A stretch of 64,000 bases of DNA from a virus (IMGVR_UViG_3300029419_000188), one strand, 5' to 3'; positions 12,217-59,250 are shown, counted from the first letter of the stretch. Numbers and translations: made by a program. Notes: generated from the letters alone by a model not told the origin.

Positions 12217-12236
12217 AAATATCTGTTGACAATTGT
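12217..12236. promoter_or_regulatory. 14-bp palindrome TTGACAATTGTCAA-like candidate operator overlapping a -35 element, representative copy
   Basis: further copies at ~36884, 40822, 46417 and 56326, each matching the palindrome at 12-13 of 14 positions. Confidence 0.5.
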
Positions 12237-12284
12237 CTTTAAAAATGGTATTATAAATTCATAAATAAGAAAGGAAAGAAGTTT

Positions 12285-31449: not shown

Positions 31450-31665
31450 TTTAATATTGACAACCTCCCACGGATAAATCCGTGGGATTCCTTAGATTCG
31501 ACAATCGCACTAGCATTCCTAAGAACACTAGATATAAATTGTCTCTTTCAGGATTTCGTGCATTTCGTTCAAGGCAAAGCCTTTTACTAGATATCTTGTT
31601 TTCACAAGAACAACGCGGTTGATGTCTGAACCGTTTTTTATTTATTTATATGTTAATTAATTAAA
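31450..31665 (-). ncRNA. putative TnpB guide (omega/right-end) RNA scaffold region
   Basis: GC-rich structured non-coding DNA immediately 3' of tnpB with several hairpins, where IS605-family TnpB omega RNAs are encoded. Confidence 0.4.
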
Positions 31666-33235
31666 ATCCAAAACAATTTTTATAACTAATTTTTTTTGCT
31701 TTCATATCTGCAATCAATTCATTTTGCAACTTTATAAAATTATCAAATTCTGCAATACACTTATCTCTATCAACATGTTTAAAACTTATATCTGCATTAT
31801 GGTATAAAAATGCACTATATAAATCTCGTTGTACTTTTTGTCCATCAATTATTTTTTCTCTTTGGTTTAATGGTATTTTTACATAAGTATCTGTATCATG
31901 ATTATATTGACTACCTTTATATGTGATAGGATTCACATAAACAATTTTTCCCTCCATTTGTTTTACTTTTTCTTCTAACAATTTTAAAAATCTAGCTGGT
32001 GATCTATCATTAATTGTTTTTCCAAAACGTTTACATCTATTTTTATTATTATTTGATTTTATTTGTTTATCATTATTTTCAAATGTTGTATTTGTTTCTT
32101 TTTTATTATTGACATTTTGTTCATTTGAACAATCTTTTGTTTCTACAAGTTTCTTTTTTTCCTTCTTTTTTAATGCATTAAAATTCATATCTTCAATAAT
32201 AAAAAATAATGAGTCTTTTACTATTTCATTTACTTGAGTTCTGTGTGAATGTGTTGTATATTCAGATTTTTGTCGATACAAATTTTTTAATTTATTTCTT
32301 AACATACAATATCTTTTTGAATATACCCATTTATCTTTACTTCTCTTTTTTATTGTTCCATCTTCATTATATTTCTTTGGATTTGTTATACGCTTTGAAT
32401 ATTCCATCTTTTTTTGAATTTTTGCAATTTTTCTATTATAATTTTTACATTTTGGTGCTAATTCATTTAAAACAGTTTTTGTCTCTGAATATCCAGCAAC
32501 AGTTGAAATACTTGGATCCATTCCCATTGTGGAACCTTTTGATGTTATATTTCGTTTTGGTGGTTCTCCTTTGACATAAATTAGCGCATAATAGTGCCAA
32601 CCATTATTAAACATTCTACGTTTAATTTCACAATAAGAAATTTTATTTTCTAAAGATTCAAACAAATACACATCTTCAAGATTATATTTGGATATTTTGC
32701 ATTTTAAGTTAAGACCTAAATATTCAATTGTATAAGTATTTTTGTCAAATTTAATTCCATTTTTTAGACTTTTACTTGGAAGTGTATTAAAATCACGGAC
32801 TTTTTTATAATGAATTGTTTTTCCAGTTGAAAACAAAACCTTTTGAACACCATTCCAAACATTATCTACCTCTTTTTGAACTTGTGAGGATGCCAACATT
32901 TTAGAAAATTGACTACCACAAACTTTCATATAAGACTCTAATCCAGTTTTTGTGAGTCCGATTTCATACTTTATTTGATTCATGATATCTGATAATTCTT
33001 TTTTCCGTTTTTGTTTTTTTTCTTTATCAGATTTTGTATTTGGTTTTGATTCATTTAATTTAATATATTCTGTCAAAGCATTTTGATATTTTTTATTTGT
33101 TTTTAATGAGTTGATAAGTTTTTTTGTATGAGATACACATACATTATGAACATGTTCTAATGCAAAAAATCGATTTGCTAACTCTCTATGATCATATTTT
33201 GTTGTATCAATTAATAATTCTACAGTATACATCAT
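31661..33235 (-). CDS. tnpB: TnpB (IS605 OrfB family)
   Basis: 524-aa protein in the canonical position downstream of tnpA within paired IS ends. Confidence 0.65.
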   Translation of the reverse strand: MMYTVELLIDTTKYDHRELANRFFALEHVHNVCVSHTKKLINSLKTNKKYQNALTEYIKLNESKPNTKSDKEKKQKRKKELSDIMNQIKYEIGLTKTGLESYMKVCGSQFSKMLASSQVQKEVDNVWNGVQKVLFSTGKTIHYKKVRDFNTLPSKSLKNGIKFDKNTYTIEYLGLNLKCKISKYNLEDVYLFESLENKISYCEIKRRMFNNGWHYYALIYVKGEPPKRNITSKGSTMGMDPSISTVAGYSETKTVLNELAPKCKNYNRKIAKIQKKMEYSKRITNPKKYNEDGTIKKRSKDKWVYSKRYCMLRNKLKNLYRQKSEYTTHSHRTQVNEIVKDSLFFIIEDMNFNALKKKEKKKLVETKDCSNEQNVNNKKETNTTFENNDKQIKSNNNKNRCKRFGKTINDRSPARFLKLLEEKVKQMEGKIVYVNPITYKGSQYNHDTDTYVKIPLNQREKIIDGQKVQRDLYSAFLYHNADISFKHVDRDKCIAEFDNFIKLQNELIADMKAKKISYKNCFGF

Positions 33236-33247
33236 TTCATCTCTTTC

Positions 33248-33649
33248 TTAAGGTCTTGTTTTTTGTGTATTAATATAATTTTTAATTGTTAAACTACTAA
33301 CATTTTCAGCAGTTGAAACAAAATAACTTCTAGTCCATAAACTTGGCATTTTACTAAGTTGTGGAAATGTATCTCTTAATATTTTAGATGATGAACCTTT
33401 AATCCATTTCATAACATCTTGTGGTGATTGAGTTGGCAAACATTTCACAAATAAATGGACATGATCTTTATGACATTCCATAGTTAATATTTGAATGTTT
33501 CGTCTTTTGTATTCATTTATTGTTAATTGTTTAAACATATCTTCTACACCTTTAATTAAAAATATTTTTCTTCTATATCTTGGACAAAATACGAAATGAT
33601 AATGAATCATTGAAACTGTTGTTTTGGTTGAAATATAATCATTTTGCAT
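33248..33649 (-). CDS. tnpA: IS200-type Y1 (HUH) transposase TnpA
   Basis: HYHFVFCPRYRR, HxH motif HKDHVHLFV and catalytic-Tyr region RSYFVSTAENVS. Confidence 0.75.
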   Translation of the reverse strand: MQNDYISTKTTVSMIHYHFVFCPRYRRKIFLIKGVEDMFKQLTINEYKRRNIQILTMECHKDHVHLFVKCLPTQSPQDVMKWIKGSSSKILRDTFPQLSKMPSLWTRSYFVSTAENVSSLTIKNYINTQKTRP

Positions 33650-33946: not shown

Positions 33947-34522
33947 ATGTATAAAAATATGAGTAAATTATTAAAAGATGGAAAAGTTGGTGATTTTAAA
34001 TTAGAGCATTTTGAAATCAAAAATAATGATTTATATGCCTTATTACATGGTATACAACCTGGAACTTATGTTAAATTAACACAAAATAATGAAGTTGTAA
34101 TGTCTAATACACAAATGGAACAACATACAAATATTGATTTTGTTGAAAATGCTCATGGAAATGTTTTAATTGGTGGATTAGGAATTGGAATGATTATTCT
34201 TGCAATTCAAGAAAAGGAAACTGTAAAATCAATTACAGTTATTGAAAAAAATAAAGAGGTAATTGAATTGATTCAACAACAATTGCCATTAAATGAAAAA
34301 GTAAAAGTTATAAATGATGATGTATTCAATTATAAACCAGCTCAAAAATTCAATACTATTTATATGGATATTTGGAATTATATAAATGAAGATGTTTATG
34401 AAAATGAAATGAAACCATTAATGAAATATTATAGAAAATATTTAATTTCAAAGACTGAAGATAAAAATAGATATATTGATTGTTGGTGTAAAAAACAAGC
34501 AAAAAATGGTGAAAGAATATGA
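33947..34522 (+). CDS. putative class I SAM-dependent methyltransferase (spermidine-synthase-like fold)
   Basis: Gly-rich motif I VLIGGLGIGMI, acidic INDDVF, and IYMDIW resembling the proximal motifs of PABS-like methyltransferases. Confidence 0.35.
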   Translation: MYKNMSKLLKDGKVGDFKLEHFEIKNNDLYALLHGIQPGTYVKLTQNNEVVMSNTQMEQHTNIDFVENAHGNVLIGGLGIGMIILAIQEKETVKSITVIEKNKEVIELIQQQLPLNEKVKVINDDVFNYKPAQKFNTIYMDIWNYINEDVYENEMKPLMKYYRKYLISKTEDKNRYIDCWCKKQAKNGERI

Positions 34523-34842
34523 TTAAAATTGGTGGTATTTATAAAAGTAAAGAAGATAATGATGTATATTTTTTAATTCTTGATGTTGATAAAAGATATC
34601 TTTATGATTATATCTTAATTGAACCATTTGAAACAATTTCAAATTTGGATATTAATAATCAATTAGATGCTGTTGAAAACTTCACAGATTTTTTTGACAT
34701 AAATAATTTTTCATTTCTGACTAAGAAATCTTTAATGAAAATTATTGATGGATATTTAGGTGAATTAACAGAAGAAAATTTAACATTTATAAAAGATACT
34801 TTTAAAACAACAGAAATATATGAAAAAATTTATAACAGATAA
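34519..34842 (+). CDS. hypothetical protein, KIGGIY paralog family
   Basis: MIKIGGIYKSK... and IIDGYLGELTEENL shared with 42353; start overlaps the upstream stop. Confidence 0.5.
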   Translation: MIKIGGIYKSKEDNDVYFLILDVDKRYLYDYILIEPFETISNLDINNQLDAVENFTDFFDINNFSFLTKKSLMKIIDGYLGELTEENLTFIKDTFKTTEIYEKIYNR

Positions 34843-35554: not shown

Positions 35555-36796
35555 TTATTTTTTTTTAATTTTTTTCCAATATTCTTCATACATTTTTTCC
35601 ATTTGACTTGTTCCAAAATGATAATATTGTTTATTCTTTAATTTTTCTGGCATATATTCTTGTTCTACATAATGATTTGGATAATCATGTGGATATAAAT
35701 ATCCATTTCCATGATTTATATTTTTTGCATTAGAATAATGACTATCTTTCAAATGATGAGGAACTTCTTCTACATTTACATCTTTCATAGCTTCTTCAAT
35801 CGCTAAATAGCATTTGTTACTCTTAGGTTGAAGTGTTAAATATACAACAGCTTCTGATAGTGGAAGTCTACATTCTGGATATCCTAGTTGTATTGCAGTA
35901 TCTACTAATGATTTAACAACTACAATGGCATTGAAATTTGCTGATCCAACATCTTCACATGCAGAACAAAGTAATCTACGTATAATTACTGGTAGGGCAT
36001 TATTTCCACCTTGCAAAAGTAAAGATAAATAATGTAGTGCTGCATCTGTTGCTGATCCACGTAAAGACTTCATAAATGCACTAGCTAGATCATAATATCT
36101 ATCATTTTGTGAATCAAGACTTAAATTAATAGCTAGTTCATTTAAATCTTCAGTATGTAAAAATACATCATTAGAAAATGGATTTTTATTTTTAAAAAAA
36201 CATGTTTCAAATTTGTTCAAACAATTTCTTAAATCTCCATTTGTTCTCATAATTAATTCTTCAATGAAATTATCATCCATTTTAATTTTACAATTGAAGT
36301 CTTTCTCAATTTTCTCTACAATTAAATTTAATCTTTTACTAATATCTTCTTGATTTAATTCTTTAAATTCAAAAATAATACAACGTGAAAGAATTGCTTT
36401 GTTAATTGTGAAATATGGATTTTCTGCAGTGCTACCAATGAGTATTACATTTCCATTTTCTACAGATTCTAATAGTACTTGCTGAGTTCGTTTTGAGATT
36501 AAATGTAATTCATCAATATATACAATTTTTTCTTCATCATTTTCATTTATTATATCTTTTAAATCTTTTACAGATAAATCAACAGCATTTAATTGAATAA
36601 AATGTTTATTCAATTCCTTTGCTAATATTCTTGCTAATGTTGTTTTTCCTGTACCTGGTGGTCCATATAAAATAATAGATTGAATATACTGATTTGTAAT
36701 AAATCCTTGAATGATACTATTTTTGTGTAAAAGATGCTTCTGTCCAACCATTTCTTCAATTTTTTTTGGTCTATATTTTGTTGCAAATGGTTCCAT
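35555..36796 (-). CDS. rarA: RarA/MgsA-family AAA+ ATPase (replication-associated recombination protein A homolog)
   Basis: N-terminal KYRPKKIEEMVGQKHLL, Walker A GPPGTGKTTLA, Walker B IVYIDELH, and the MgsA C-terminal helical domain (DRYYDLASAFMKSLRGS.TDAALHYLSLLL.GG ... LAIEEA); start at MEPF with RBS GAAAGGGGA. Confidence 0.75.
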   Translation of the reverse strand: MEPFATKYRPKKIEEMVGQKHLLHKNSIIQGFITNQYIQSIILYGPPGTGKTTLARILAKELNKHFIQLNAVDLSVKDLKDIINENDEEKIVYIDELHLISKRTQQVLLESVENGNVILIGSTAENPYFTINKAILSRCIIFEFKELNQEDISKRLNLIVEKIEKDFNCKIKMDDNFIEELIMRTNGDLRNCLNKFETCFFKNKNPFSNDVFLHTEDLNELAINLSLDSQNDRYYDLASAFMKSLRGSATDAALHYLSLLLQGGNNALPVIIRRLLCSACEDVGSANFNAIVVVKSLVDTAIQLGYPECRLPLSEAVVYLTLQPKSNKCYLAIEEAMKDVNVEEVPHHLKDSHYSNAKNINHGNGYLYPHDYPNHYVEQEYMPEKLKNKQYYHFGTSQMEKMYEEYWKKIKKK

Positions 36797-36926
36797 AAAA
36801 TTTCCCCTTTCTATTATCAATTATTATCTAAGTATAATATGTTCAACTTGAAAAATATTTCAATTTATGATAAAATCATAAATGAAATAAAGACAATTGT
36901 CAATAAAAAATAGAAAGGATTAAAAA

Positions 36927-38558
36927 ATGATTACAGATTTTATAGTTGGGTTTGTCCAATTTTTAAATAAAAATGAATATACCATTTCACAAGAACAAAT
37001 TTCTAGATTTTTTTCATTAATCTATTCTTTAAGAATTTCATTTATAAATGAACAAGATATTATTGATTTAATGAAAACAGTTTTTTGTTCAACTAAACTA
37101 CAATCAGAGTATATTCAAAAATATTTTAAGGAATATACAGATATTTATTTAAAAGAAAATTTAAATAAAAAAAATAAAAAAGATTTAGAACAAAAAAAAG
37201 AAACAGAATATCAAAAATTTCATAAAAACATACAAAACAAAGAAATTTTCTTAAAAGAACTTGACAATGAAATTAATAAAAAAATCCTTGAAGTAAAAAA
37301 TGAAGCTGTTGATTATCAAAAAATAATGACAAATAAAGATAAAAAATTTGTAAAACAAAATTTAGAAAAATTGAAAGAAATTAATCATGATAATAAAAAT
37401 ATGATAAAATTTTTAGATGAATTTGAAAAAGATTCAGATTGTTTTGCAATTAGTTCAATATTTGAAAAAGAAAGTGAAAATTTAATAGAAAAGGCTGAAA
37501 AATTATTATTTGATGGTAAAATTAAAGAATTTGAATTAGAAGAAGAGTTTTATCAAATATCTAAACGTTTAAAAAATAAAATTGAAAAAACTGATATTGA
37601 GTCAAGAATTCAAAAAGAAACAAGAAGTTTAAAAACACAACAGAAAAAAATTCAAAAAGAAATAGAACAAGAAAAAGAAGAACATACAAAAATTATGAAT
37701 CAAATTGAACAGATTCTTCAAAATCAAAGATTAGAAACAGAATCAAAAATTATAAAAAAGGAAGAATCCATTAATCATAGAGAAATATTTATTGGTGGTA
37801 ATAGTTTTGTACAAACAGATAAAAATACAAAAGAACTGTTTACAAAAAATATTGGAAGTTTAAATAAAGACGAAAGAAATCAAATTATTAGATATATTAA
37901 ACGAAACATTCTAAAATTTAAAACAAAAATGAACAGAAGTATTCATACAAACCAAAGACTTGATTTTAATATAAAAGATACCATTCAAAATGCATGTAAA
38001 ACAAGTGGTTTACCAATGCAATTAATTTTTGATAAACCAATGAATAATAAATCAAATCTTGTATTGATGTTAGATGTCTCAGGGTCTTGTTCAACTGCAT
38101 CAAAAATGATGTTAACATTTATGTATCTTTTAAAAGATGTTTTCCCAAGAGGCTGTGATACTTTTGCATTTGTAAATTCATTATATGATATTTCAGATAT
38201 CATGAAAACATCAAATATTGAAACAGCAATTGATTCTGTGTTAAATGCAATTCCAAGAAAAGGTGTTTATTCTAATTATTATAAACCTTTGGAAACATTA
38301 TGGACTGAATATAAAAAGACAATCACGAAAGATAGTATTGTTATTTTTATGGGAGATGCCCGTAATAATAAAAATAATACTGCTGAAGAATTTATGAAAA
38401 ATATTGGACATCGTGCAAAAAAATGCTATTGGTTAAATACAGAAAAATATGATAAATGGAACAAAGCAGATTCTCTTGCATCATTATATGGAAAATATGC
38501 AACTATGTATGAAGTAGTTAATATTGGAGAATTAATTAATTTTATTGAGAATATATAG
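36927..38558 (+). CDS. coiled-coil protein with a C-terminal von Willebrand factor A (VWA) domain
   Basis: MIDAS-type DVSGSCS (DxSxS) followed by a conserved T and GDARNN; ~330-aa K/E-rich coiled-coil N-terminus; NorD/CbbO-like architecture; palindrome AGACAATTGTCAA ~40 bp upstream. Confidence 0.6.
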   Translation: MITDFIVGFVQFLNKNEYTISQEQISRFFSLIYSLRISFINEQDIIDLMKTVFCSTKLQSEYIQKYFKEYTDIYLKENLNKKNKKDLEQKKETEYQKFHKNIQNKEIFLKELDNEINKKILEVKNEAVDYQKIMTNKDKKFVKQNLEKLKEINHDNKNMIKFLDEFEKDSDCFAISSIFEKESENLIEKAEKLLFDGKIKEFELEEEFYQISKRLKNKIEKTDIESRIQKETRSLKTQQKKIQKEIEQEKEEHTKIMNQIEQILQNQRLETESKIIKKEESINHREIFIGGNSFVQTDKNTKELFTKNIGSLNKDERNQIIRYIKRNILKFKTKMNRSIHTNQRLDFNIKDTIQNACKTSGLPMQLIFDKPMNNKSNLVLMLDVSGSCSTASKMMLTFMYLLKDVFPRGCDTFAFVNSLYDISDIMKTSNIETAIDSVLNAIPRKGVYSNYYKPLETLWTEYKKTITKDSIVIFMGDARNNKNNTAEEFMKNIGHRAKKCYWLNTEKYDKWNKADSLASLYGKYATMYEVVNIGELINFIENI

Positions 38559-38568
38559 AGGTGAAATT

Positions 38569-40767
38569 ATGGGAAAAAGTAAAGGTGGAACAACTTTATT
38601 TCAAAAATTTATAAAAAATAATATAAATGAATTAAACAATGAAATTAATCTTTTAATCAAAGATTATCCACAAATTAACTCATTAGAATCTATTACTTTA
38701 ACATCAAAGACAGAAGCAGAAGCTATTTTTAAATTAAAAACAGGATTTTATGTGAAAACTGAAATTAGAAAATGCAAAATAAATAGATGTATCAGTGAAC
38801 TAAAGAAATTTTTGGATAAGTATTTTTCAATAGAAACGCCATTCCAAAAATACTTAAAAAATAATTTAGATGAATTAAAATGTGATATTAATAATTTATT
38901 AATTATCTATCCAGATATAGATTCATTAGAAACTATTATATTAACATCTAATAAGACTGCAAATGTTAAATTCAATCTAAAAAGTGGAAAACATATTGAA
39001 ATAGAAATAAAAAGATGTAGTACTGATAAGTGTATCAAAGAATTAAAAAATTCATTAATAAAAACCATTGAAAACAAAGAAATATTTGAAATTTATATAG
39101 AAAACAATTTAGAATCATTAAAAAATGAAATAAATACTTTGATTGTAGATTATCCATATATTGATTCTTTAGTAAATATCACATTGATATCAAAAAAGGC
39201 TGCAAATGTGAAATTTAAATTAAAAACAGGAAAAATAATTGAAACTGAAATTAGAAAATGTACAGTAAATAACTGTATAAAAGATATCAATAATTATTTA
39301 ACTTATTATTTTATGAATAATCAGAAACTCATTGAAAAGGACTTAGTTCAAGACATTTTAACAAATAATGATTATAATGAAATTGAAAATAGAATAAACA
39401 ATATACTTGATGATAAAAGAATACATATAAAAATTTCAAAAAATGTTCAAGTCTATTATGATACAAAAAAAGTATATACAAAATCATTTTTTGATTTAAT
39501 CAATTTAATGGACTATTTTGAATTAAAGTTTTCAGAAAACAAAAAAGAGACTATTCTCAAAAAACCAAAAGAAAAGATGTATACAAGTATTTCTAAAAAA
39601 TTAAAAACAAAATTAAAGAATGTAAATATTGATGTACCAAAAGAAAATAAAATTGTAAAAGAAGCTGAAAAAATTTACAATGATTATAAATTAAAAAATA
39701 ATACAATGTTAAATACAAAACAATATAAAACAAAAACTATGAATTGTAGTCATTCATTATTAGATTTGTCAGAGCTTAAAATAGACACAAAAGAATTCAA
39801 AATTATAGATAGTAAAAATGAACTACACATAAATTATAAGCCTAGTTTTAAAAATTATAATGATATTGTAAATTCAGATTTATTTCAAAGAGCTAATACA
39901 ATGTTAAAAAATTACATTAAAAACTCAGAATACAATTTTACAGAATTTAAAGGTCTTGGATTTTGGTTTGGTTCAACAACATTTTTGGTTAGTAATTCTA
40001 AATGGGAACAATCTTATTTAATTAAAATTGATTCTCCATATTCTGAAAAAATGAATGTAGAAGATTGGATGACGGATGTTACAAATAAAACAACATCAAA
40101 GATTGTTGATATTGAAAGAAAAATTGAAGAAAAAAGGCAGAAAATTTATAAACAAACTACAAAATATCGAAACAGTTTTTTAGCAAGAGATATTGTATCA
40201 TTTATAAAAAAGAATGAAGAATATATTACAGAAAATGCAGTTATTCAATATATGAAGGGAAATACTGTTCAATTAAATACAGTTATTCATGATTTACCAG
40301 ATTTCATACCATATAAAAATTATACAAAAGATGAAATTTCTAAAATCATAAAATCATTGGTAAATAATAATATTATAGAAGAATGGGCATATAAAGGTAC
40401 GTATGGAACATTTTATACTTTACATTTAACAAATAATAATTATAAACAAATTCTTTTAACTGTAAAGGAAACTGGTATTACTCTTGATCCATTTTCCAAA
40501 ACTGTATTCACAGATTTTGAAGCTGAAAAAATATTTTTTGATTATGAAAATAAGATTCATTTAGCAATAAGAGATTATATAATGTTATTTAATTTAAGTT
40601 CTTCAAAAGGATTCTTGATTAGATATTATGATGAATATATTTCTATTTTACAAAATGCACCAAAAGAAGTAAAAAAACTTTGGAAAATGAAAATAGATAT
40701 GGAGCAAAATAAATTTATAAAAAAATTTTTAAAAGAAATTATAAAAACTCCAAAAGTTCATAATTAA
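38569..40767 (+). CDS. large hypothetical protein with three N-terminal tandem ~83-aa repeats and a C-terminal winged-helix-like segment
   Basis: repeats FQK(F/Y)(I/L)KNN..EL...IN.L...YP.I.SLE.I.LTS...A...F.LK.G......EI(R/K)(R/K)C....CI.ELK occur three times; the start overlaps the VWA gene end, suggesting translational coupling; terminator at 40784-40812. Confidence 0.5.
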   Translation: MGKSKGGTTLFQKFIKNNINELNNEINLLIKDYPQINSLESITLTSKTEAEAIFKLKTGFYVKTEIRKCKINRCISELKKFLDKYFSIETPFQKYLKNNLDELKCDINNLLIIYPDIDSLETIILTSNKTANVKFNLKSGKHIEIEIKRCSTDKCIKELKNSLIKTIENKEIFEIYIENNLESLKNEINTLIVDYPYIDSLVNITLISKKAANVKFKLKTGKIIETEIRKCTVNNCIKDINNYLTYYFMNNQKLIEKDLVQDILTNNDYNEIENRINNILDDKRIHIKISKNVQVYYDTKKVYTKSFFDLINLMDYFELKFSENKKETILKKPKEKMYTSISKKLKTKLKNVNIDVPKENKIVKEAEKIYNDYKLKNNTMLNTKQYKTKTMNCSHSLLDLSELKIDTKEFKIIDSKNELHINYKPSFKNYNDIVNSDLFQRANTMLKNYIKNSEYNFTEFKGLGFWFGSTTFLVSNSKWEQSYLIKIDSPYSEKMNVEDWMTDVTNKTTSKIVDIERKIEEKRQKIYKQTTKYRNSFLARDIVSFIKKNEEYITENAVIQYMKGNTVQLNTVIHDLPDFIPYKNYTKDEISKIIKSLVNNNIIEEWAYKGTYGTFYTLHLTNNNYKQILLTVKETGITLDPFSKTVFTDFEAEKIFFDYENKIHLAIRDYIMLFNLSSSKGFLIRYYDEYISILQNAPKEVKKLWKMKIDMEQNKFIKKFLKEIIKTPKVHN

Positions 40768-41131
40768 TGTATGTTTTGAATTTGAAACCATTGAAATTTC
40801 AATGGTTTCATTTCATTAAACATTTGACTATTGTCAATAATCATGATAAAATAAAAAAATATAAAAAGATTAATTTTTATAAAAAACAATAAATATAACT
40901 TCAGCAATCATTAAAGTGAATTAAAGAATACTGAGAGAAATTGTGAAAATGACAAAAGAAGAAAAAGACAATATAAGAAAAGAATTAAATCAATATACTA
41001 AAGAAGAGTTAATTGAAAAAATAATTATTGAAAGAGAAGAAAATCAGAATCAATTACTTTTTCTTGAAATGAAAATTGATGAAATAGGAACTTTATTAAA
41101 ACTTTGAAATAATTAGAAAGGTGAAAAATTA

Positions 41132-42037
41132 ATGAATATAATTGAGATTAAAAAAGGATTAAAAAATGTCAATTATATGGCATCTAATGATATTATTTTT
41201 GCAGCAGCAGGTACAATTAATGAACAAATCCCATTATTAATAGAAGGTGCACCAGGCGCAGGGAAGACTGCATTAGCAAAAGCTGTTTCAGAAATGTTAG
41301 GATATAAATTGATAAGAGTACAATTTTATGAAGGTTTAACAGCTGATAAAATTTTATATGATTATGATTATCAAAGACAATTACTTACTATTGAATCTAT
41401 AAAAAGTGTTTTAGCAAAAGAATTAAATGATAAAAATATTGAAGAAGCAATTGATGCAACAAAAGATATTAATTTTTATGGGAAATCATTTTTAATTCAA
41501 AGACCAATTTTAGAGTCTATTATGAGTGATGAACGATGTGTATTACTTTTGGATGAAATTGATAAAGCTTCTGAAGAAATTGAATATACATTATTACAAT
41601 TTCTAGATGAATTTTCATTGTCAATCCCACAATATGGAACAATTACTGCAGATGAAAATAAAAAACCAATTGTATTTTTAACATCTAATAATTATAGAGA
41701 TTTATCTGATGCATTAAAGAGAAGATGTAATTATCTTTATATAAATAATAAAACAAAAGAAGAAATGATGGAAATTTTAAAAATGAAAGCAAATATATCT
41801 GATCAACTTGTAAATGGTGTAGCATCTTGTTTAGTTGATATTCAGAAATTAAATTTAAAACAAATGCCATCCATTGATGAAGGTATTAAATGGGCAACTT
41901 ATCTTCAAAAGAATTTTAGTGAAATTAATGAAGATAATATTGATTATACCATTTGTATGCTTGCAAAAAATAATGATGATGTAAAGGAAATTTTAAAAGC
42001 AAATGTAGTGAAAAAAAACATTGGAAAACAATTCTGA
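41132..42037 (+). CDS. MoxR-family AAA+ ATPase (CbbQ/NorQ/GvpN-like subgroup)
   Basis: Walker A GAPGAGKTALAK, ...LIRVQFYEGL...LYDYDYQRQLL resembling CbbQ/NorQ, Walker B VLLLDEIDKAS; palindrome TTGACTATTGTCAA in its promoter region at ~40822. Confidence 0.65.
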   Translation: MNIIEIKKGLKNVNYMASNDIIFAAAGTINEQIPLLIEGAPGAGKTALAKAVSEMLGYKLIRVQFYEGLTADKILYDYDYQRQLLTIESIKSVLAKELNDKNIEEAIDATKDINFYGKSFLIQRPILESIMSDERCVLLLDEIDKASEEIEYTLLQFLDEFSLSIPQYGTITADENKKPIVFLTSNNYRDLSDALKRRCNYLYINNKTKEEMMEILKMKANISDQLVNGVASCLVDIQKLNLKQMPSIDEGIKWATYLQKNFSEINEDNIDYTICMLAKNNDDVKEILKANVVKKNIGKQF

Positions 42038-42352: not shown

Positions 42353-42655
42353 ATGACATTAAAAATAGGTGGAATTTATAAATCTAAGACTATATACAAT
42401 TTATATTATATTGTACTGACAGCTGATAACAAATACATATATGTTTATGAATTTAAAACAAATCAATATTCAAATATGGAAATTAATAATCAAATTAAAG
42501 TTTCAGATTCATCTAATTTTTCATATTACACAAAATCAATATTTCCCAATATTATTGATGGATATTTAGGTGAATTAACAGAAGAGAATTTAAATCAATT
42601 ATCAATAATTTTCAAAAAAACATTATATTATAAATGTATGTATGATAAGAATTAA
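42353..42655 (+). CDS. hypothetical protein, KIGGIY paralog family
   Basis: MTLKIGGIYKSK...IIDGYLGELTEENLNQL; RBS AAAAAGGAGAAAATTTTT. Confidence 0.5.
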   Translation: MTLKIGGIYKSKTIYNLYYIVLTADNKYIYVYEFKTNQYSNMEINNQIKVSDSSNFSYYTKSIFPNIIDGYLGELTEENLNQLSIIFKKTLYYKCMYDKN

Positions 42656-45201: not shown

Positions 45202-46377
45202 TTATATTTTTTCAATCAATAATTCTTTAATTTTTTCAACATTACTATTTCCACAATGAAGCAATTTTGTATTTGTTTGTTTACAAATTTCTTTAACATG
45301 ATAATAAGTTGTATGATTTACATAATTTGTAAAAACAACTACATAATCAGATTTTGGAATACTATTTTCATAATTTTTAAATGCAATTTTTGCAGTAGGA
45401 AATGCATTTTGTAATTCATTTAAAAATGTACATCTGTCTGAAATGATAAATAATAATTGATAATCATTAATATTTTTATCAAAAGTTGTAATCATTTCTT
45501 CTTCTTTTTCTTCTTCTGTAATGGTTATTTCTTGTGAAGTTTGTTTCTTTAATTTTTCTCTCAATTCTTCATTATTTTTTAATAATTCATAATTTTCTTT
45601 TCTCAATTCTTCTGTATTTCTTTTTATCAATAATCTAGTTTCTTCATTTTTTTTCTGCAAATCATTTTTTAATTTTTCAATTATTATTTCTCGTTCTGTA
45701 AGTTTTTCTTCTAATTTTTCATTTTCATGCATTGTGTCAAACATCTGCTTTGTAACATCTAATAATTCTTCACCATTGTCTCCTTTATAATCCTCATTAA
45801 TTAAAATTAAATGTTCAAATGATACGATTATTTTATAAAAAGCTTCATTTAATATCTTTAATTGATCTGGATCAGATAGAGGTAACAATTCTCGAATATA
45901 ATTAACTTCATTGATTGTTGGATTTTTTGCTGATAAATATGCAATATATTCTTGATATACATTTTCTAATTCATGATGTATCATTTTATAAATTACTGGT
46001 CCTTGTGTAAATACATCTTTTACTTCTTCTAAATCCTTTTTTGCAATTAAAATAGATGGAATTTCTGGTAAATGAAAGAGATGTAATAGTACTTTCATTT
46101 TTTTATAATCTTCATTCAAACTATGTACATATATTACCATATTTGCTAAAAGATAATCATCAATATTTGTTATTTTAAATGGTCCATTATGATAAATTTT
46201 ATCAAATGAAGGTGTATTATCTTTCACATATTTAAATAAATCCAATTTTGCCTTTGTTACAAATCTCGAAAATCTTTTACCTTTGAAATCTTCATCCATT
46301 GCAAAAGAATGAAGATAATTTTCATCCATATTATTCATAGTATCTAAAGCTTTTTCTAATATTTTTTCTAAATCCAT
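45202..46377 (-). CDS. hypothetical coiled-coil protein with a C-terminal domain resembling DUF2325
   Basis: RBS AAAGGAGTG; long coiled coil; C-terminus DYVVVFTNYVNHTTYYHVKEICKQTNTKLLHCG; palindrome AGACAATTGTCAA ~40 bp upstream of the start. Confidence 0.45.
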   Translation of the reverse strand: MDLEKILEKALDTMNNMDENYLHSFAMDEDFKGKRFSRFVTKAKLDLFKYVKDNTPSFDKIYHNGPFKITNIDDYLLANMVIYVHSLNEDYKKMKVLLHLFHLPEIPSILIAKKDLEEVKDVFTQGPVIYKMIHHELENVYQEYIAYLSAKNPTINEVNYIRELLPLSDPDQLKILNEAFYKIIVSFEHLILINEDYKGDNGEELLDVTKQMFDTMHENEKLEEKLTEREIIIEKLKNDLQKKNEETRLLIKRNTEELRKENYELLKNNEELREKLKKQTSQEITITEEEKEEEMITTFDKNINDYQLLFIISDRCTFLNELQNAFPTAKIAFKNYENSIPKSDYVVVFTNYVNHTTYYHVKEICKQTNTKLLHCGNSNVEKIKELLIEKI

Positions 46378-46532
46378 ACTATCACTCCTTTATTATATTT
46401 ATATTGTATCATATTTACAGACAATTGTCAAAAATATTGTAAAATTTAAAACAATATAAAAAAATAAGAATATTTTTTATTTAAGAATCTATAATAAAGA
46501 AAAAAAATGTAAGTTTTGAAAAGGAGAGAATT

Positions 46533-55731: not shown

Positions 55732-56461
55732 CTTTATCTCTCCTATTTTTTTCTTTCATTATAGATGAAATTGTTTTTTTTATTCCTATTTTTTCATTCC
55801 TCCTCGGTTTCTCTTTCCCATAGAGGTCCTTCTACACAAACATTGGGAATGGTTTCAACCATTCCCTATGTCCTCACTTCTCCCTTTCAACAAAAGCGAC
55901 TATCTGTTAGAAGTCCTTTCCCCATTTTTTCAAACATCTTTTCTCGAATCTATCCAATTCTTCTCCTTTCTTCCATTTTTCAAAAATTCTTTCCTTCTCT
56001 TTCTTATTTTCTTCTTCAATCTCTCTAATTCTTTTCCCTAGTAAATCAATAAGATTATCAGTCCATTCTGCCACTTCTTCTTCTGTAGTATCTAGTTCAA
56101 TTGGATTATCAAGATCAAGAACACTTGCAGACAAGTGGTTATGAACAATTCTTCTCGGCACTAAAGTACCGAGGATGCTTGTTCAATAATCCTTAAAGTG
56201 TATAAATACCTTCATTTCAAATAGACATTCCTATTTCATAAATTCTTTCTATTTCATGGGACTGTTTTGTTTTGCATCAACAAAGTGTACAAAAATTTCT
56301 GTCAAAATGAAAGAAAATTTGTGACAATTGTCAATAGACAAGTGAAACCACAAATGATATGATGTGTAAATACATTAAGTGAAAGGAGAAAATTTGCTGA
56401 TGAAAACAAAAAAATTGGATGATGTAAGAAAAATGAATGAAAAATTTTGGAGGGAAAATAG

Positions 56462-57110: not shown

Positions 57111-57578
57111 ATGGATTTTATTACATTTTTAAAAACATATTTCAATCAAATTAGTACTATTTGTGATACAAGACAACAATCAAAAGTCATTTATCATATA
57201 AGTAATATTTTAATTTTAATTATCATTGCTATGATGTGTGATTATAAAAATATTTTGACAATTCAACAATTTGTTGAACAAAATAAATCAATTTTATACA
57301 AACATCATTTATTGGAAAATGAAAAACAAATACCTAGTAAAAATACATTTTATAGAATACTAGATATTGTAAATTGGAAACAATTAAAATCAATATCTAG
57401 AATTATTATGTATGAATTACCATCTGAAATTCAAAATTTATTAAAAACAAATCAAATTTCAAAAATAATGGATGGTAAGTTCATAAAAGGAAATAAAAGA
57501 AATTCTATAAGAGCTGTAAATATAGTATCTTTATTTGATACTGCATTAGGGAGAAATATACCATTCACTACATCGTAG
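57111..57578 (+). pseudogene. ISAs1-family (H-repeat-associated) transposase, N-terminal fragment
   Basis: N-terminal region resembles the DDE_Tnp_1-associated N-terminal domain; ends at ~155 aa, whereas full-length ISAs1 transposases are ~370 aa. Confidence 0.5.
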
Positions 57579-58131: not shown

Positions 58132-59250
58132 CTACTTCACTTCATACAACATTTCTGTAATTTTTTCTCCAGCTTCTCGATCCATTTCTTTTAATGTATG
58201 AGCGTAGATGTTAAGAGTAGTTGTAATATTACTGTGTCCAAGTCTGTCAGATACAATCTTAGAATTCACATTCTTCTGAATTAACAAAGTTGCATGTGCA
58301 TGTCTTAAATCATGAAAACGAATTTGTTTTAATTCTTTTTTTATTAAAAATCTTCTAAAACGTTGTGAAATACAATCTTCTCCAATTGGATTTCCTTTTT
58401 TATCAAAGAAAATTAATTCATCATTTATTCTTTCACCTTTTAATCTTTTTTGAATTTGTTTCTTACGTTCTTTCTTTAACATTTCAAAAATTTCTTGTGG
58501 TCCTGATAAATCACGGATAGAACTTTCTGTCTTTGGTTCTTTTAATATTACTTCACCATTTACTCTTGCAGTAATTTGTCTAACATGTATCACTTTATTT
58601 TCAAAATCAATATCTTGCCATCGAAGACCAAGTATTTCACTAATTCTTAAACCAAATCCAACTGCTAGATGTATTGGTAATTCAATATTTTTATCTTTCA
58701 CTTTTTCAAATAATATTTTCAAATCTTCTTCTGTATAAATTTCATTCTTAAATTTATTATTCTTTGGTATCATAATCCTATCAACAATTTTATCATCAAT
58801 TATTTGAAGTTTATATGCATAAGTAAGTGCAATACTTAATATATTTAAATGAATTTTTACTGTTTGTGGCTTTAATTCTAATATTTTTAAATCTACATAT
58901 TTTTGTAAATGAATGGGCTGCAACTCAGATAGCTTCAATTTACCAAGTATTGGATAAATATGTTTGATTAATATTTTTATATATTGTTCATATGTTGTAA
59001 TACTTATATTTCGTTTATATGAATTCATAAATTCATTCATATAATTTTCTAATGTTTGTTCATTTGGTAATTGCAATTTATTTATATCTTTTAAATATGA
59101 TAATTCTCGTTTTCGTTTTTCTGCATCTTTCTTATTCGTATAAGTTCCCATATTCTTCTGACTTCTTTTCTTAAACTCATCTTCAGATGTAAGATATACA
59201 TAATATTTACTGTTTCGTTCTCGTATAAATATACTCACTATTCTTTCCAT
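58132..59250 (-). CDS. tyrosine recombinase / phage-type integrase
   Basis: C-terminal catalytic region HDLRHAHATLLIQ...GHSNITTTLNIYAH (R..H..R..Y signature); N-terminal SAM-like core-binding region; RBS GAAAGGAGTATATT. Confidence 0.8.
   Translation of the reverse strand: MERIVSIFIRERNSKYYVYLTSEDEFKKRSQKNMGTYTNKKDAEKRKRELSYLKDINKLQLPNEQTLENYMNEFMNSYKRNISITTYEQYIKILIKHIYPILGKLKLSELQPIHLQKYVDLKILELKPQTVKIHLNILSIALTYAYKLQIIDDKIVDRIMIPKNNKFKNEIYTEEDLKILFEKVKDKNIELPIHLAVGFGLRISEILGLRWQDIDFENKVIHVRQITARVNGEVILKEPKTESSIRDLSGPQEIFEMLKKERKKQIQKRLKGERINDELIFFDKKGNPIGEDCISQRFRRFLIKKELKQIRFHDLRHAHATLLIQKNVNSKIVSDRLGHSNITTTLNIYAHTLKEMDREAGEKITEMLYEVK

Follow-up and report, generated by a model that had tools for sequence, protein, structure and literature searches.

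A conserved MoxR-VWA gene triad of Bacillota with a possible DNA-structure-binding third component

Pairs of a MoxR-type AAA+ ATPase and a VWA-domain protein recur in several bacterial systems, and among them the CoxD type includes the nearest annotated relatives of the ATPase described here. CoxD-type ATPases of plasmid pAO1 belong to a gene set, MoxR-VWA-XdhC, that is located next to Mo-hydroxylase genes. MoxR-vWA ternary conflict systems, which comprise VMAP, iSTAND, FtsH, and beta-propeller classes, have been proposed to derive from CoxD-CoxE pairs, and the VMAP-C architecture consists of 7 strands and 6-7 helices (PMC7159879).

The window, a 64,000-nt stretch of DNA recorded as viral (IMGVR_UViG_3300029419_000188), contains a related locus (Table 1). 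A sequence-only reading had described four genes in a row, and all four ORFs were recovered where it had placed them. The conserved unit, however, consists of three genes, not four: those of a CoxE-type VWA protein, a protein called X here, and a MoxR AAA+ ATPase. The 733-aa ORF overlapping the VWA gene exists if a TTG start is used, but gene callers place the start of X at an ATG (38569; 732 aa) that lies 10 nt past the VWA stop. No TM-like hydrophobic segments were found in any of the three proteins. Purifying selection acts on all three genes, with dN/dS values of 0.11 (AAA), 0.25 (VWA), and 0.32 (X).

Table 1. Features of the locus; positions are counted from the first nucleotide of the window.
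Feature	Position	Strand	Basis
RarA/MgsA AAA+ ATPase, 413 aa counted from ATG	35555..36796	-	Pfam MgsA_C
Promoter-like site for VWA-X transcript	36848..36876	+	consensus match only
Palindromic element AAGACAATTGTCAA	36890..36903	.	
CoxE-type VWA protein, 543 aa	36927..38558	+	Pfam VWA_CoxE
MIDAS motif D383-V-S-G-S387 in VWA protein	38073..38087	+	
Protein X, 732 aa, third component	38569..40767	+	
Three tandem ~82-aa repeats of X	38593..39333	+	alignment
C-terminal module of X (XC, X residues 490-732)	40036..40767	+	family conservation, model
RQC-like winged helix inside XC, X residues 537-620	40177..40428	+	
Hairpin, terminator-like	40783..40810	+	
Promoter-like site TTGACT-17-TAAAAT	40824..40852	+	
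Small ORF, 52 aa, uncertain status, between X and AAA	40949..41108	+	
MoxR-type AAA+ ATPase (CoxD-like), 301 aa	41132..42037	+	Pfam AAA_5

The ATPase is MoxR-like (Pfam AAA_5, 4.5e-16), with a Walker A motif (GAPGAGKT, residues 39-46) and a Walker B motif (VLLLDE, residues 137-142). Identity between Bacillota families is 52-67%, and the protein is 35-38% identical to plasmid-borne CoxD-type MoxR. Its best NCBIfam match is MadB_ATPase (NF047784), which it matches over the full length with 188 bits against a cut-off of 475. It had been read as a MoxR ATPase of the CbbQ/NorQ type. The MoxR part of that assignment holds, but the CbbQ/NorQ part does not: CbbQ_C and NorQ are absent from its profile matches, and no CbbQ/NorQ match was found in the PDB.

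The VWA protein has a conserved N-terminal ~70 aa, then a coiled-coil insert (~76-275) that is variable and K/E-rich, and at its C-terminus the VWA_CoxE domain with the MIDAS (residues 337-521; Pfam 1.3e-22, 80.7 bits, cut-off 26.4). Pfam and the homologue alignment thus agree with the earlier description of a K/E-rich part and a C-terminal VWA domain carrying a DxSxS motif, the K/E-rich part being the middle of the protein (K+E 36% across residues 76-300). Homologues numbered 120, most of them full length, and D383, S385, and S387 of the MIDAS plus G476-D477 were unchanged in 42 homologues. The best NCBIfam match is a MadC-family VWA (NF047783; 68 bits over the VWA domain, cut-off 600). Residues 269-507 are 20% identical to the pAO1 CoxE-like VWA protein. 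By the relatives of both proteins, the pair is CoxD/CoxE-like in sequence, and a CbbQ/NorQ affiliation of the pair was rejected on the same grounds.

Protein X is given no family by Pfam, NCBIfam, or PADLOC and, in line with the earlier reading, does not belong to the known virion or structural proteins. A word search returned only 4 close homologues, and the X family amounts to 111 representatives among 1.84 billion proteins, whose matches lie mostly over residues ~430-730. The three tandem repeats that had been noticed, at ~83 aa each, align as three repeats of ~82 aa (residues 9-91, 92-172, and 173-255) with ~63-67% identity at the DNA level and a CxxxxC pair in each. In an AlphaFold2 model the repeat folds as a helix, three strands, and a helix (pLDDT ~80-86), and a fold search of the PDB gave no match (best Foldseek E = 0.012). 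The repeats and the N-terminal part are lineage-specific; the N-termini of other family members are unrelated, and X of one relative (L025, 568 aa) retains one repeat only. The dN/dS across the repeats is 0.21 and therefore indicates no diversifying selection. The dS of the N-terminal two-thirds of X is 2-3 fold below that of its C-terminal module and the flanking genes, a low value that suggests recombinational exchange in this part.

The constant part of X is its C-terminal module of ~240 aa, XC. The full module is present in 102 family members, C-terminal in every case, and in Erysipelotrichaceae XC is a separate gene of ~200 aa. Its predicted structure (pLDDT 93.8, pTM 0.88) contains 2 strands and about 13 helices, arranged as a long helix, an RQC-type winged helix, and a C-terminal helical bundle. 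The winged-helix-like C-terminus of the first reading thus reappears in the model, where it looks like an RQC-type winged helix. The best Foldseek matches are BLM, RECQ1, and WRN-type RQC domains, the BLM alignment spanning 192 columns. Pfam RQC matches are weak and recurrent, occurring in 10 of 60 XC members and always below the gathering threshold. Conserved motifs include L-R-G and a K-G-T-Y-G turn that places Tyr612 at the wing tip. The residues at this position in RECQ1 and WRN, Tyr564 and Phe1037, stack on the terminal base pair. The scores of XC against ArsR, PadR, and MecI-type repressors are as high as those against RQC.

The triad was found in more than 12 independent loci in Lachnospiraceae, Erysipelotrichaceae, Peptococcaceae, and uncultured low-GC Bacillota (the window, L025, L031, L023/L005, L003, L006/14/15, L010, L011/12, L016, L017/18, L021, L027-29, and L030). 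The proposal that VWA protein, large repeat protein, and MoxR form a partner set is borne out, because, in several Bacillota families, every locus examined that was long enough contains the three genes as an operon. In other words, many Bacillota inherit the strongly conserved ATPase, the VWA protein with an intact MIDAS, and X jointly as one operon. Lineages do not share flanking genes, which identifies the triad as the conserved unit. The order VWA-X-MoxR had been taken as a defining feature; the widespread order is instead AAA-VWA-X, with X following VWA in related loci, and the order in the window is a lineage-specific permutation of it. In L025, X and AAA are separated by 13 nt. In Gemella and Owariibacterium an AAA-VWA pair occurs but no X was detectable, so the pair is able to function without X. 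As had been supposed, no named system in Pfam, NCBIfam, or PADLOC matches the set, which represents a conserved triad of gut Firmicutes that is uncharacterised so far.

Is RarA a fourth member, and is the locus part of a phage-like mobile element? The divergent minus-strand gene does encode a RarA/MgsA AAA+ ATPase (Pfam MgsA_C 9.1e-56, AAA, and AAA_assoc_2), and in L025 RarA lies within ~2 kb of the triad, but on the other side. L031, whose X is 82% identical to that of the window, has SecY/SecE upstream of the triad, and RarA is absent from the locus there and in all lineages examined besides the window and L025. RarA is thus a neighbour only. The window contains IS200/IS605 elements, an integrase, and a SocA/Panacea domain. 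However, a PHROGs search with its 10 largest other ORFs matched only transposase, integrase, and thymidine kinase, with no phage hallmark genes; there were no tRNA or Rfam matches, and no phage or plasmid record was similar or carried the triad. The triads of relatives lie among chromosomal genes (GyrB, FtsH, PtsI, RecG, FtsK, ParE/ParC, SecY, and SbcCD), and the triad is chromosomal rather than phage-borne. With CbbQ/NorQ features also missing from the ATPase, a four-gene system of RarA, VWA protein, repeat protein, and CbbQ/NorQ-type MoxR on a phage-like mobile element is highly improbable.

How, then, is the triad best explained? Our preferred reading, which is tentative and carries somewhat less than even confidence, is that the three proteins make up a self-contained MoxR-VWA machine belonging to the CoxD/CoxE lineage, in which X serves as the dedicated third subunit and binds DNA structures. 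DNA is its likely site of action because XC looks like the segment with which RecQ helicases clamp duplex DNA ends and branch points. Soft support for a DNA role comes from DNA-metabolism genes near the triad: RarA (window and L025), SbcCD (L006), RecG (L023), RecX (L027-29), FtsK and ParEC (L003), and GyrB with a 5'-3' exonuclease (L025). Neighbours in other loci are unrelated to DNA repair (LRR proteins, KptA/PARG, and M16 peptidases).

If the triad works like CbbQ-CbbO, NorQ-NorD, CoxD-CoxE, and the chelatases BchI-BchD-BchH and CobS-CobT-CobN, the ATPase would form a hexameric motor on which the VWA protein docks, using its MIDAS-bound metal to take hold of an acidic residue in the client. 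X itself would be that client, gripped via its constant C-terminal module, and ATP hydrolysis would remodel X or the cargo of X. On DNA ends, forks, or other structured DNA, the motor could thereby load X, release it, or reshape it, and the variable N-terminus of X may provide lineage-specific contacts.

A rather unlikely but sizeable alternative is a biological-conflict (anti-phage or anti-plasmid) ternary MoxR-vWA system of the kind described by Kaur, Burroughs, Iyer and Aravind. Here the ATPase-VWA pair would be a threshold-setting switch, and X a sensor that detects the invader, either via its variable N-terminus or via its RQC-like domain, which would recognise foreign DNA ends. The triad is the sole unit conserved across lineages with differing neighbourhoods, and its distribution is patchy. 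Non-homologous N-termini of X, the change in repeat number from 3 to 1, the lowered dS, and mobile or conflict-flavoured neighbours (IS605, integrase, and SocA/Panacea in the window, LPD28 in L029, and KptA/PARG in L030) point the same way. However, effector domains (nuclease, peptidase, TIR, pore, or cyclase) are lacking from all three proteins, and the defence-system profile scan that had been proposed, run on the triad with PADLOC, gave no significant match, only generic P-loop matches. The VWA domain is C-terminal with no fusion after it, in contrast to the systems of PMC7159879, and the strand and helix content of XC differs from VMAP-C. The dN/dS of the repeats and the position of many loci amid housekeeping genes in small low-GC genomes also argue against a conflict system.

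A classical CoxD/CoxE-like maturation chaperone, which would supply an unlinked enzyme with its metal or cofactor, X serving as scaffold or insertase and its CxxxxC pairs carrying metal, is improbable. The closest annotated relatives of the pair do have this very function beside Mo-hydroxylases, with XdhC in the operon position of X, and every X repeat has a conserved Cys pair. But the Cys-bearing repeats are limited to the lineage of the window, the part of X that is conserved consists of a winged helix and a helical bundle and is not a known metal-binding fold, and within ~10 kb in >12 contexts there is no gene for a Mo-hydroxylase, XdhC, CoxF/G, or another metalloenzyme.

Upstream of VWA-X there is a promoter-like TTGAAA-17-TAAAAT with TG, and L025 and L031 carry an equivalent TTGAAA-17-TATAAT upstream of VWA. 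As noticed before, the MoxR gene lies behind a hairpin and a promoter-like site of its own. The hairpin has a perfect 12-bp stem and a weak T tract and begins 16 nt after the X stop; terminator-like sites number 2 observed against 0.7 expected, and the hairpin is absent in L025. The -35 box of the following site belongs to palindrome TTGACTATTGTCAA, and the site is a separate promoter-like element from which the small ORF and the AAA gene would be transcribed. In the lineage of the window, the ATPase gene has moved behind X and acquired a putative promoter of its own. The small ORF encodes a charged, probably helical product with no Pfam match; it is called as a gene in L001/L002 and was not found in L025.

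As had been reported, the VWA/RarA, AAA, and flotillin genes are preceded by the palindrome TTGACAATTGTCAA. In the VWA leader it is present as AAGACAATTGTCAA, and read on the minus strand this element supplies the -35 box of the RarA promoter. L025 keeps it ~20 nt upstream of VWA, though without a divergent RarA, and L031 has TTGACAATTGTCAA-...-TATAAT at the same position ahead of AAA. The motif TTGACWATTGTC occurs 5 times (0.02 expected after TTGAC[AT]) and is also found at a DUF2325 gene and at ~56.3 kb; a relative has 3 copies within 13 kb. The motif is thus not specific to the cluster: the shared palindrome stands as a lineage-wide promoter element, but cluster-specific co-regulation does not. 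Could X be a transcription factor that binds TTGACAATTGTCAA via its winged helix under MoxR-VWA control, with autoregulation and a regulon of flotillin, RarA, and DUF2325? At least 4 promoters have a -35 box that overlaps the palindrome, XC matches repressors as well as RQC, and its long N-terminal helix could dimerise. Nevertheless, such a role seems quite improbable. The palindrome is missing upstream of VWA in L031 and absent from L023, L003, L006, L027, L029, and L030, whereas XC is conserved far more widely; the density in the relative suggests a global regulator or promoter feature; and the sequence signature and best Foldseek matches favour RQC over repressor families.

Compared with known systems, the triad is closest to CoxD-CoxE, which act in Mo-hydroxylase maturation (for example Oligotropha CO dehydrogenase and Paenarthrobacter pAO1). 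In both, a ~300-aa MoxR AAA+ precedes a VWA_CoxE protein whose VWA domain is C-terminal and carries a MIDAS, and a third accessory gene lies directly downstream; identity to the pAO1 proteins is 35-38% for AAA and about 20% for VWA. The triad differs in that no Mo-hydroxylase or XdhC/CoxF/G genes are nearby, its VWA protein has a ~200-aa coiled-coil insert, its third gene encodes an unrelated winged-helix protein, and its hosts are anaerobic gut Bacillota. MadB (NF047784) and MadC (NF047783) have a similar architecture, with an AAA of ~300 aa and a protein of ~500 aa whose VWA domain is C-terminal. Because their scores are far under the equivalog cut-offs, the ATPase and VWA protein are relatives, not members, of these families; X matches no NCBIfam model, and the meaning of 'Mad' was not found in the searchable literature.

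CbbQ-CbbO, NorQ-NorD, and RavA-ViaA share the general principle of a MoxR AAA+ with a VWA/MIDAS adaptor. The triad lacks a CbbQ_C domain, any NorQ, CbbQ, or RavA family or PDB match, and a Rubisco, NOR, or respiratory-complex context, and its VWA is CoxE-type, not CbbO, NorD, or ViaA. The AAA+ chelatases BchI-BchD-BchH and CobS-CobT-CobN, each of three subunits, follow a common logic, in which an AAA+ motor works via a VWA/MIDAS adaptor on a third, large subunit. Unlike them, the triad has no tetrapyrrole context and no VWA fused to an AAA-like domain, and X has no sequence relationship to BchH/CobN. The MoxR-vWA ternary conflict systems are alike in the pair and in a constant third component whose N-terminal part varies greatly, but X is none of VMAP-C, iSTAND, FtsH, or beta-propeller, no effector is fused to the C-terminal VWA or present anywhere in the triad, and those systems occur in multicellular bacteria whereas the triad occurs in unicellular gut Firmicutes. 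Finally, XC shares the L-R-G motif and an aromatic residue at the beta-wing tip with the RecQ family's C-terminal region, and its modelled winged helix is nearest to the RQC domains of WRN, BLM, and RECQ1. Its helical bundle stands where HRDC would be and is putatively HRDC-like. X lacks a helicase core and a Zn-binding domain, and its Pfam RQC matches are sub-threshold; XC is instead joined to lineage-specific repeats and encoded beside a MoxR-VWA pair.

The MoxR AAA+ ATPase, the CoxE-type VWA protein and the large third protein (X) of the window form a real, conserved three-gene module, or triad, that has no existing name and that varies the MoxR-VWA theme with a RecQ-C-terminal-like partner. 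The module was traced from diverged homologues of the VWA protein and of the ATPase (2151 of the latter at E <= 1e-10) into their contigs, together with a scan of one genome per GTDB species. A sequence-only reading of the window had grouped the VWA gene, the large repeat protein and the MoxR gene, and the same three-gene operon indeed recurs in many Bacillota loci. Its products are a ~295-300-aa ATPase, followed by a VWA_CoxE protein ~545-590 aa long and by a protein of 440-750 aa in which Pfam finds no domain. In all triad loci the third gene is found by a profile built on the C-terminal ~240 residues of X. Carriers are found in Lachnospiraceae, Erysipelotrichaceae, Allobaculum, Peptococcaceae and several uncultured low-GC lineages, and include a cultured strain, Anthropogastromicrobium aceti H6_35 (Lachnospiraceae). 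The triad is regarded as a unit because only close relatives have flanking genes in common. Two variations were seen: in Erysipelotrichaceae the C-terminal module of X is a separate ~200-aa gene after a 503-aa gene, and only the ATPase-VWA pair is present in Gemella (sp. GL1) and Owariibacterium (komagatae). The order VWA-X-AAA is restricted to the window and its nearest relatives, the loci L025 (ATPase 82% identical) and L031 (X 82% identical). In other words, it is a lineage-specific permutation of AAA-VWA-X, and in this lineage the ATPase gene acquired a promoter of its own. The anatomy of the triad, as described here, is highly probable.

Features of the window cluster, its surroundings and the related loci
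Feature	Position	Strand	Details
RarA/MgsA	35555-36796 (from its ATG)	minus	Pfam MgsA_C 9.1e-56, AAA 3.7e-18, AAA_assoc_2 2.9e-12
VWA protein, 543 aa	36927-38558		Pfam VWA_CoxE at residues 337-521, 80.7 bits (cut-off 26.4)
X, 732 aa	38569-40767		ATG start in two independent gene calls
N-terminal two-thirds of X	38569-40035
C-terminal module of X	40036-40767
Hairpin, perfect 12-bp stem	40783-40810		between X and ATPase gene
Promoter-like site	40824-40852		TTGACT-17-TAAAAT, between X and ATPase gene
52-aa ORF			between X and ATPase gene
MoxR ATPase, 301 aa	41132-42037		AAA_5/MoxR type, canonical Walker A and B
Palindrome sites, window	12226-12239, 36890-36903, 40824-40837, 46418-46431, 56321-56334
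Palindrome sites, L031	503, 2661, 12246
Palindrome site, L025	6606
Flotillin, 464 aa	12285-13679		Band_7/SPFH + Flot
Second TnpB, 437 aa	15780-17093		OrfB_IS605 + Cas12f1-like TNB
Thymidine kinase-SocA/Panacea ORF, 452 aa	19803-21161		TTG start
IS200/IS605 pair	31661-33649		TnpA Y1 transposase 133 aa, TnpB-like 524 aa
Small paralogous proteins	34519-34842, 42353-42655
DUF2325 protein	45202-46377	minus	coiled-coil, C-terminal DUF2325
DDE_Tnp_1-associated fragment	57111-57578
Tyrosine integrase	58132-59250	minus	Phage_integrase + SAM-like N-terminal domain
Second VWA protein of L025, 707 aa	3624-5747		weak VWA, faint CobT_C
SecY and SecE-like genes of L031	5384-6730, 8021-8209
DUF2325 counterpart in L023	4548-5753		29% identity

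The four ORFs named at the cluster, those of the triad and of a RarA/MgsA ATPase, are all present, and Pfam detects the AAA+ module, AAA_assoc_2 and MgsA_C of RarA. The MoxR gene was said to stand behind its own terminator and promoter; a terminator-like hairpin and a promoter-like site are both located between X and the ATPase gene. X was said to overlap the VWA gene, but its best start is an ATG that lies 10 nt past the VWA stop. TM-like segments are absent from all three triad proteins. At ~22% GC the window is very AT-rich, and metagenome contigs of up to 97 kb carry exactly the same proteins. The low GC raised a suspicion of genetic code 4 (Mollicutes), which was ruled out: the coding sequences use TGG, some ORFs stop at TGA, and long ORFs are intact in table 11. 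The organism belongs to an uncultured, very low-GC (22%) lineage with the standard genetic code. Most window ORFs have no Pfam or PHROG family. One ORF combines a thymidine kinase domain (residues 41-222) with a SocA/Panacea antitoxin-like domain at its C-terminus (342-423), a fusion that would be unusual if it is a single gene.

The ATPase is a single ~300-aa MoxR AAA+ module with intact Walker A (GAPGAGKT at residue 39) and Walker B (VLLLDE at residue 137) and a linked VWA/MIDAS partner. Its Pfam matches are AAA_5 (4.5e-16), AAA (5e-13) and AAA_3 (3e-7), and in all loci its gene is next to the VWA_CoxE gene or has only X between. The proposed CbbQ/NorQ type finds no support. CbbQ_C is absent from its significant Pfam matches, NCBIfam gives no CbbQ/NorQ signature (GvpN alone, scoring 21.9 bits where the cut-off is 266.8), and a phmmer search of the PDB returned midasin, Lon and NVL and no CbbQ or NorQ at E <= 1e-3. 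The gene context does not match either: genes for Rubisco, nitric-oxide reductase or gas vesicles are missing both from the window and from the more than 12 related contexts.

To which MoxR proteins is the ATPase related? Among annotated proteins its nearest relatives are CoxD-type MoxR proteins, which are 35-38% identical over >93% of the length and one of which is annotated as CO dehydrogenase subunit D. Its partner falls in Pfam VWA_CoxE, and residues 269-507 of that partner align to a CoxE-like protein of Paenarthrobacter pAO1, where the gene order is MoxR, VWA protein (363 aa) and XdhC, adjoining molybdenum-hydroxylase (kdh) genes. These relatives would suit a triad that matures a cofactor, a role that is nonetheless improbable: molybdenum hydroxylase and XdhC/CoxF/CoxG genes are missing from every triad context examined, which argues for a relative of the CoxD-CoxE pair and not for a functional member of a CO-dehydrogenase-type maturation system. 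The AAA-VWA pair thus belongs, by sequence relationship, to the CoxD/CoxE lineage and has been recruited to another third partner.

The set was also supposed to match no described system, and database comparisons agree. The best NCBIfam models are the MadB family AAA-type ATPase (188.3 bits over the full length, equivalog cut-off 475) and, for the VWA protein, the MadC family VWA (68.3 bits, equivalog cut-off 600). Literature searches for 'MadB/MadC' gave only lanthipeptide, Phycomyces and unrelated uses. PADLOC-DB 2.0 gave no significant full-length match: the ATPase and RarA had only short P-loop matches (IetA, DolB, TRIP13), the VWA protein had a single weak match to LmuB (E = 0.006), and X had none. 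The MoxR and vWA entries in the PafBC paper concern proteins unrelated to the triad.

The VWA protein has the predicted architecture, a K/E-rich coiled-coil region (residues 76-300, 36% Lys+Glu) and a C-terminal VWA domain with a MIDAS, after which no domain follows. The MIDAS residues D383-x-S-x-S387 and the pair G476-D477 do not vary among 42 homologues with identities as low as 26%, and residues 76-300 are the variable part of the family. The 120 homologues found are mostly full-length (~540 aa). PDB sequence searches with the VWA protein and with X gave no useful match. L025 encodes a different, second VWA protein two genes upstream of its triad; no counterpart was identified beside the window triad.

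X is divided into a variable N-terminal part and a constant C-terminal module, referred to as XC (residues 490-732). The three tandem repeats noticed in the sequence are shown by alignment and by the structural model, although BLASTP of X against itself does not report them. They occupy residues 9-255, are ~82 aa long and each have a conserved CxxxxC pair. AlphaFold2 models them as units of a helix, three strands and a helix with pLDDT ~80-86, and a fold search of the PDB with the repeats gave no significant match. There are three repeats in the window and L031 and one in L025; more generally, X N-termini are alignable within close lineages only. Clustered at 50% identity, the family has 111 representatives in a set of 1.84 billion proteins. 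Its members resemble one another mainly over the C-terminal ~240 residues, and XC is at the C-terminus in all 102 members carrying the module.

What is the constant module? Modelling of full-length X with 4 close sequences gave a pTM of 0.27 and an unusable C-terminus. A model of XC from a 60-sequence alignment reached pLDDT 93.8 and pTM 0.88, and shows a 33-residue helix, a winged helix and a bundle of about six helices. The winged-helix-like segment proposed for this end of the protein is therefore seen, and its fold is closest to RQC structures. The Pfam RQC score of the window XC, 19.1 bits, is below the gathering cut-off of 23; sub-threshold RQC matches occur in 10 of 60 XC members (best E = 3.3e-4). 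RQC domains of the RecQ family have an L-R-G-like motif and, at the wing tip, an aromatic residue; this residue stacks against the end of a DNA duplex. The most conserved residues of XC are an N-E-x-Y-I-T-E-N-A...L-R-G stretch and a K-G-T-Y-G turn, and the turn is located exactly at the tip of the beta-wing, between XC strands 114-121 and 124-131. The wing-tip tyrosine (Tyr612 in X) is present in 86% of 103 sequences, and we take Tyr564 of RECQ1 and Phe1037 of WRN to be its equivalents. A 192-column alignment with BLM hints that the terminal bundle may be an HRDC domain; no Pfam HRDC match was seen in 60 XC members. X contains no helicase or Zn-binding domain, and a literature search for MoxR with RQC or a winged helix found nothing relevant.

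Comparison of the window with L031 (Nei-Gojobori dN/dS) shows that all three genes are under purifying selection. The ratio is 0.11 for the ATPase, 0.25 for the VWA protein (0.55 in its coiled-coil insert) and 0.32 for X, in which the repeats (0.21), the middle (0.40) and the C-terminal module (0.36) differ. Diversifying selection on the repeats was not found. In the N-terminal two-thirds of X, dS is 0.14-0.29, which is 2-3 fold below that of the module (0.45) and of the neighbouring VWA and AAA genes (0.50-0.54). This local decrease suggests a recent recombinational exchange of the N-terminal part.

The sequence-only reading also pointed to one palindrome in the VWA/RarA, MoxR and flotillin promoters and took it as a sign of co-regulation. 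The motif is confirmed. TTGACWATTGTC occurs 5 times in the window against 0.02 expected given 71 TTGAC[AT] sites, GACAATTGTC with <=1 mismatch occurs 7 times against 2.4 expected, and all sites are intergenic. The TTGACA half is 17 nt upstream of a -10-like hexamer at the promoters of flotillin, RarA, the DUF2325 gene and the small ORF/ATPase. A site lies in the VWA leader, and L025 has a copy at the same place without a divergent RarA. The ATPase gene of L031 is preceded by a strong promoter whose -35 box is overlapped by a perfect TTGACAATTGTCAA, and two further copies in L031 precede unrelated genes within 13 kb. Because the palindrome precedes unrelated genes throughout the lineage, it is not evidence for co-regulation specific to the cluster, and that part of the claim falls. 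The palindrome TTGACAATTGTCAA is an operator or promoter element found across the lineage; it probably either serves a global repressor as operator or is a signature of promoters in these uncultured organisms. Could the triad itself regulate by binding it? The site in the VWA leader would invite this idea, which is very improbable: the palindrome is absent from more distant loci. No HTH-family regulator was found among the neighbouring ORFs. The DUF2325 protein lies within 3-4 kb of the triad, as does its counterpart in the distant low-GC relative L023, and may be loosely associated with the triad.

RarA is a neighbour and not a member of the module, contrary to the four-gene cluster first proposed. 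It is divergent from and adjoins the VWA gene in the window alone; in L025 it is ~2 kb past the ATPase gene on the opposite strand, in L031 SecY and SecE are found upstream of VWA and RarA is absent, and it is likewise absent from the locus in all other lineages examined. The SecY and SecE-like genes of L031 lie amid orphan ORFs and a GIY-YIG gene, outside a ribosomal-protein operon, and may be an accessory Sec pair of that lineage.

Nor is a phage-like mobile context supported. PHROGs searches with the 10 largest other window ORFs found only transposases, an integrase and thymidine kinase, and the window had no tRNA or Rfam matches. DNA-level comparison with phage and plasmid records returned only short RarA matches, and no similar triad was present in them; by tblastn of the ATPase, phages had no triad-type relative and plasmids only CoxD-types of <=38% identity. 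The relatives have chromosomal-type neighbours, such as GyrB, FtsH, PtsI, RecG, FtsK, ParE/ParC, SbcCD and SecY. A four-gene, phage-borne system, which the adjoining RarA and the phage-like setting had seemed to indicate, is accordingly close to untenable, and annotation of this locus as a CbbQ/NorQ, phage-borne or RarA-containing system should be avoided. The window holds IS200/IS605 copies and an integrase, so it may derive from a genomic island or large replicon. One IS200/IS605 pair is just upstream of the cluster and a second TnpB is farther upstream. The tyrosine integrase lies beside a DDE_Tnp_1-associated fragment, which hints at a possible integrated element within the window. The RarA-VWA-X-AAA block is bracketed by two paralogous small proteins (44% identical, E = 1e-24) that start '(I/L)KIGGIYKSK', have 'IDGYLGELTEENL' in common and belong to no Pfam family; they could be traces of a segmental insertion or rearrangement by which the block arrived.

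How would such a module work? MoxR-VWA pairs are widespread and their known clients are few: Rubisco, NO reductase, CO dehydrogenase, respiratory complexes and chelatases. By analogy with CbbQ-CbbO, NorQ-NorD, CoxD-CoxE, BchI-BchD-BchH and CobS-CobT-CobN, the ATPase would assemble as a hexameric motor, the VWA protein would be an adaptor whose MIDAS metal grips an acidic residue of the client, and the co-inherited X would, by way of its constant module, serve as client or targeting subunit. Since this module is an RQC-type winged helix, the likely site of action would be structured or terminal duplex DNA, and the variable N-terminus would supply lineage-specific contacts. Motor, adaptor and a client acting at DNA make a plausible, tentative scheme. 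Soft support for a DNA role comes from the repair genes near triads, which include RarA, SbcCD, RecG, RecX, FtsK/ParEC and GyrB with a 5'-3' exonuclease. A fuller hypothesis, more speculative than this scheme, is that a CoxD/CoxE-type MoxR-VWA motor has taken over a helicase-less RecQ C-terminal module (an RQC whose wing tip bears an aromatic 'pin', and a helical bundle) as its dedicated client or targeting subunit. The result would be a new ATP-driven machine in gut Bacillota. It would recognise ends or branches in DNA, serve as a genome-maintenance factor or an effector-less anti-mobile-element system, and change its specificity when the N-terminal repeat domains of X are swapped.

If true, the triad would add a nucleic-acid-linked class of client to MoxR-VWA pairs and would place a RecQ-type RQC domain at work outside a helicase. 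The lineages that carry the triad are common in human and animal guts (Lachnospiraceae, Erysipelotrichaceae and uncultured low-GC Bacillota). The hypothesis is directly testable because cultured carriers exist. A genome-maintenance role would make the triad a new accessory factor near the RarA, SbcCD, RecG and RecX pathways, and a defence role would make it a Firmicutes MoxR-vWA ternary class without a conventional effector.

The main rival to a DNA-directed machine, which we consider somewhat less likely, sees in the triad a ternary MoxR-vWA conflict system as defined in PMC7159879. That account allows effector-less systems where the third component has a hypervariable N-terminus, and the X N-termini, alignable only within close lineages, would accommodate it. 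However, an effector domain is absent from all three proteins, and selection is purifying. The vWA of the ternary systems bears C-terminal effector or superstructure-forming domains, whereas the VWA domain here is itself C-terminal with nothing fused. The fold of X is also unlike the third components VMAP-C, iSTAND, FtsH and beta-propeller, for which there was no Pfam match in X or in 60 family members; VMAP-C is described as 7 strands and 6-7 helices (PMC7159879), while XC is a winged helix and helices with 2 strands. What the triad and the ternary systems have in common is a constant third component, represented here by XC in its 102 members, combined with a highly variable region.
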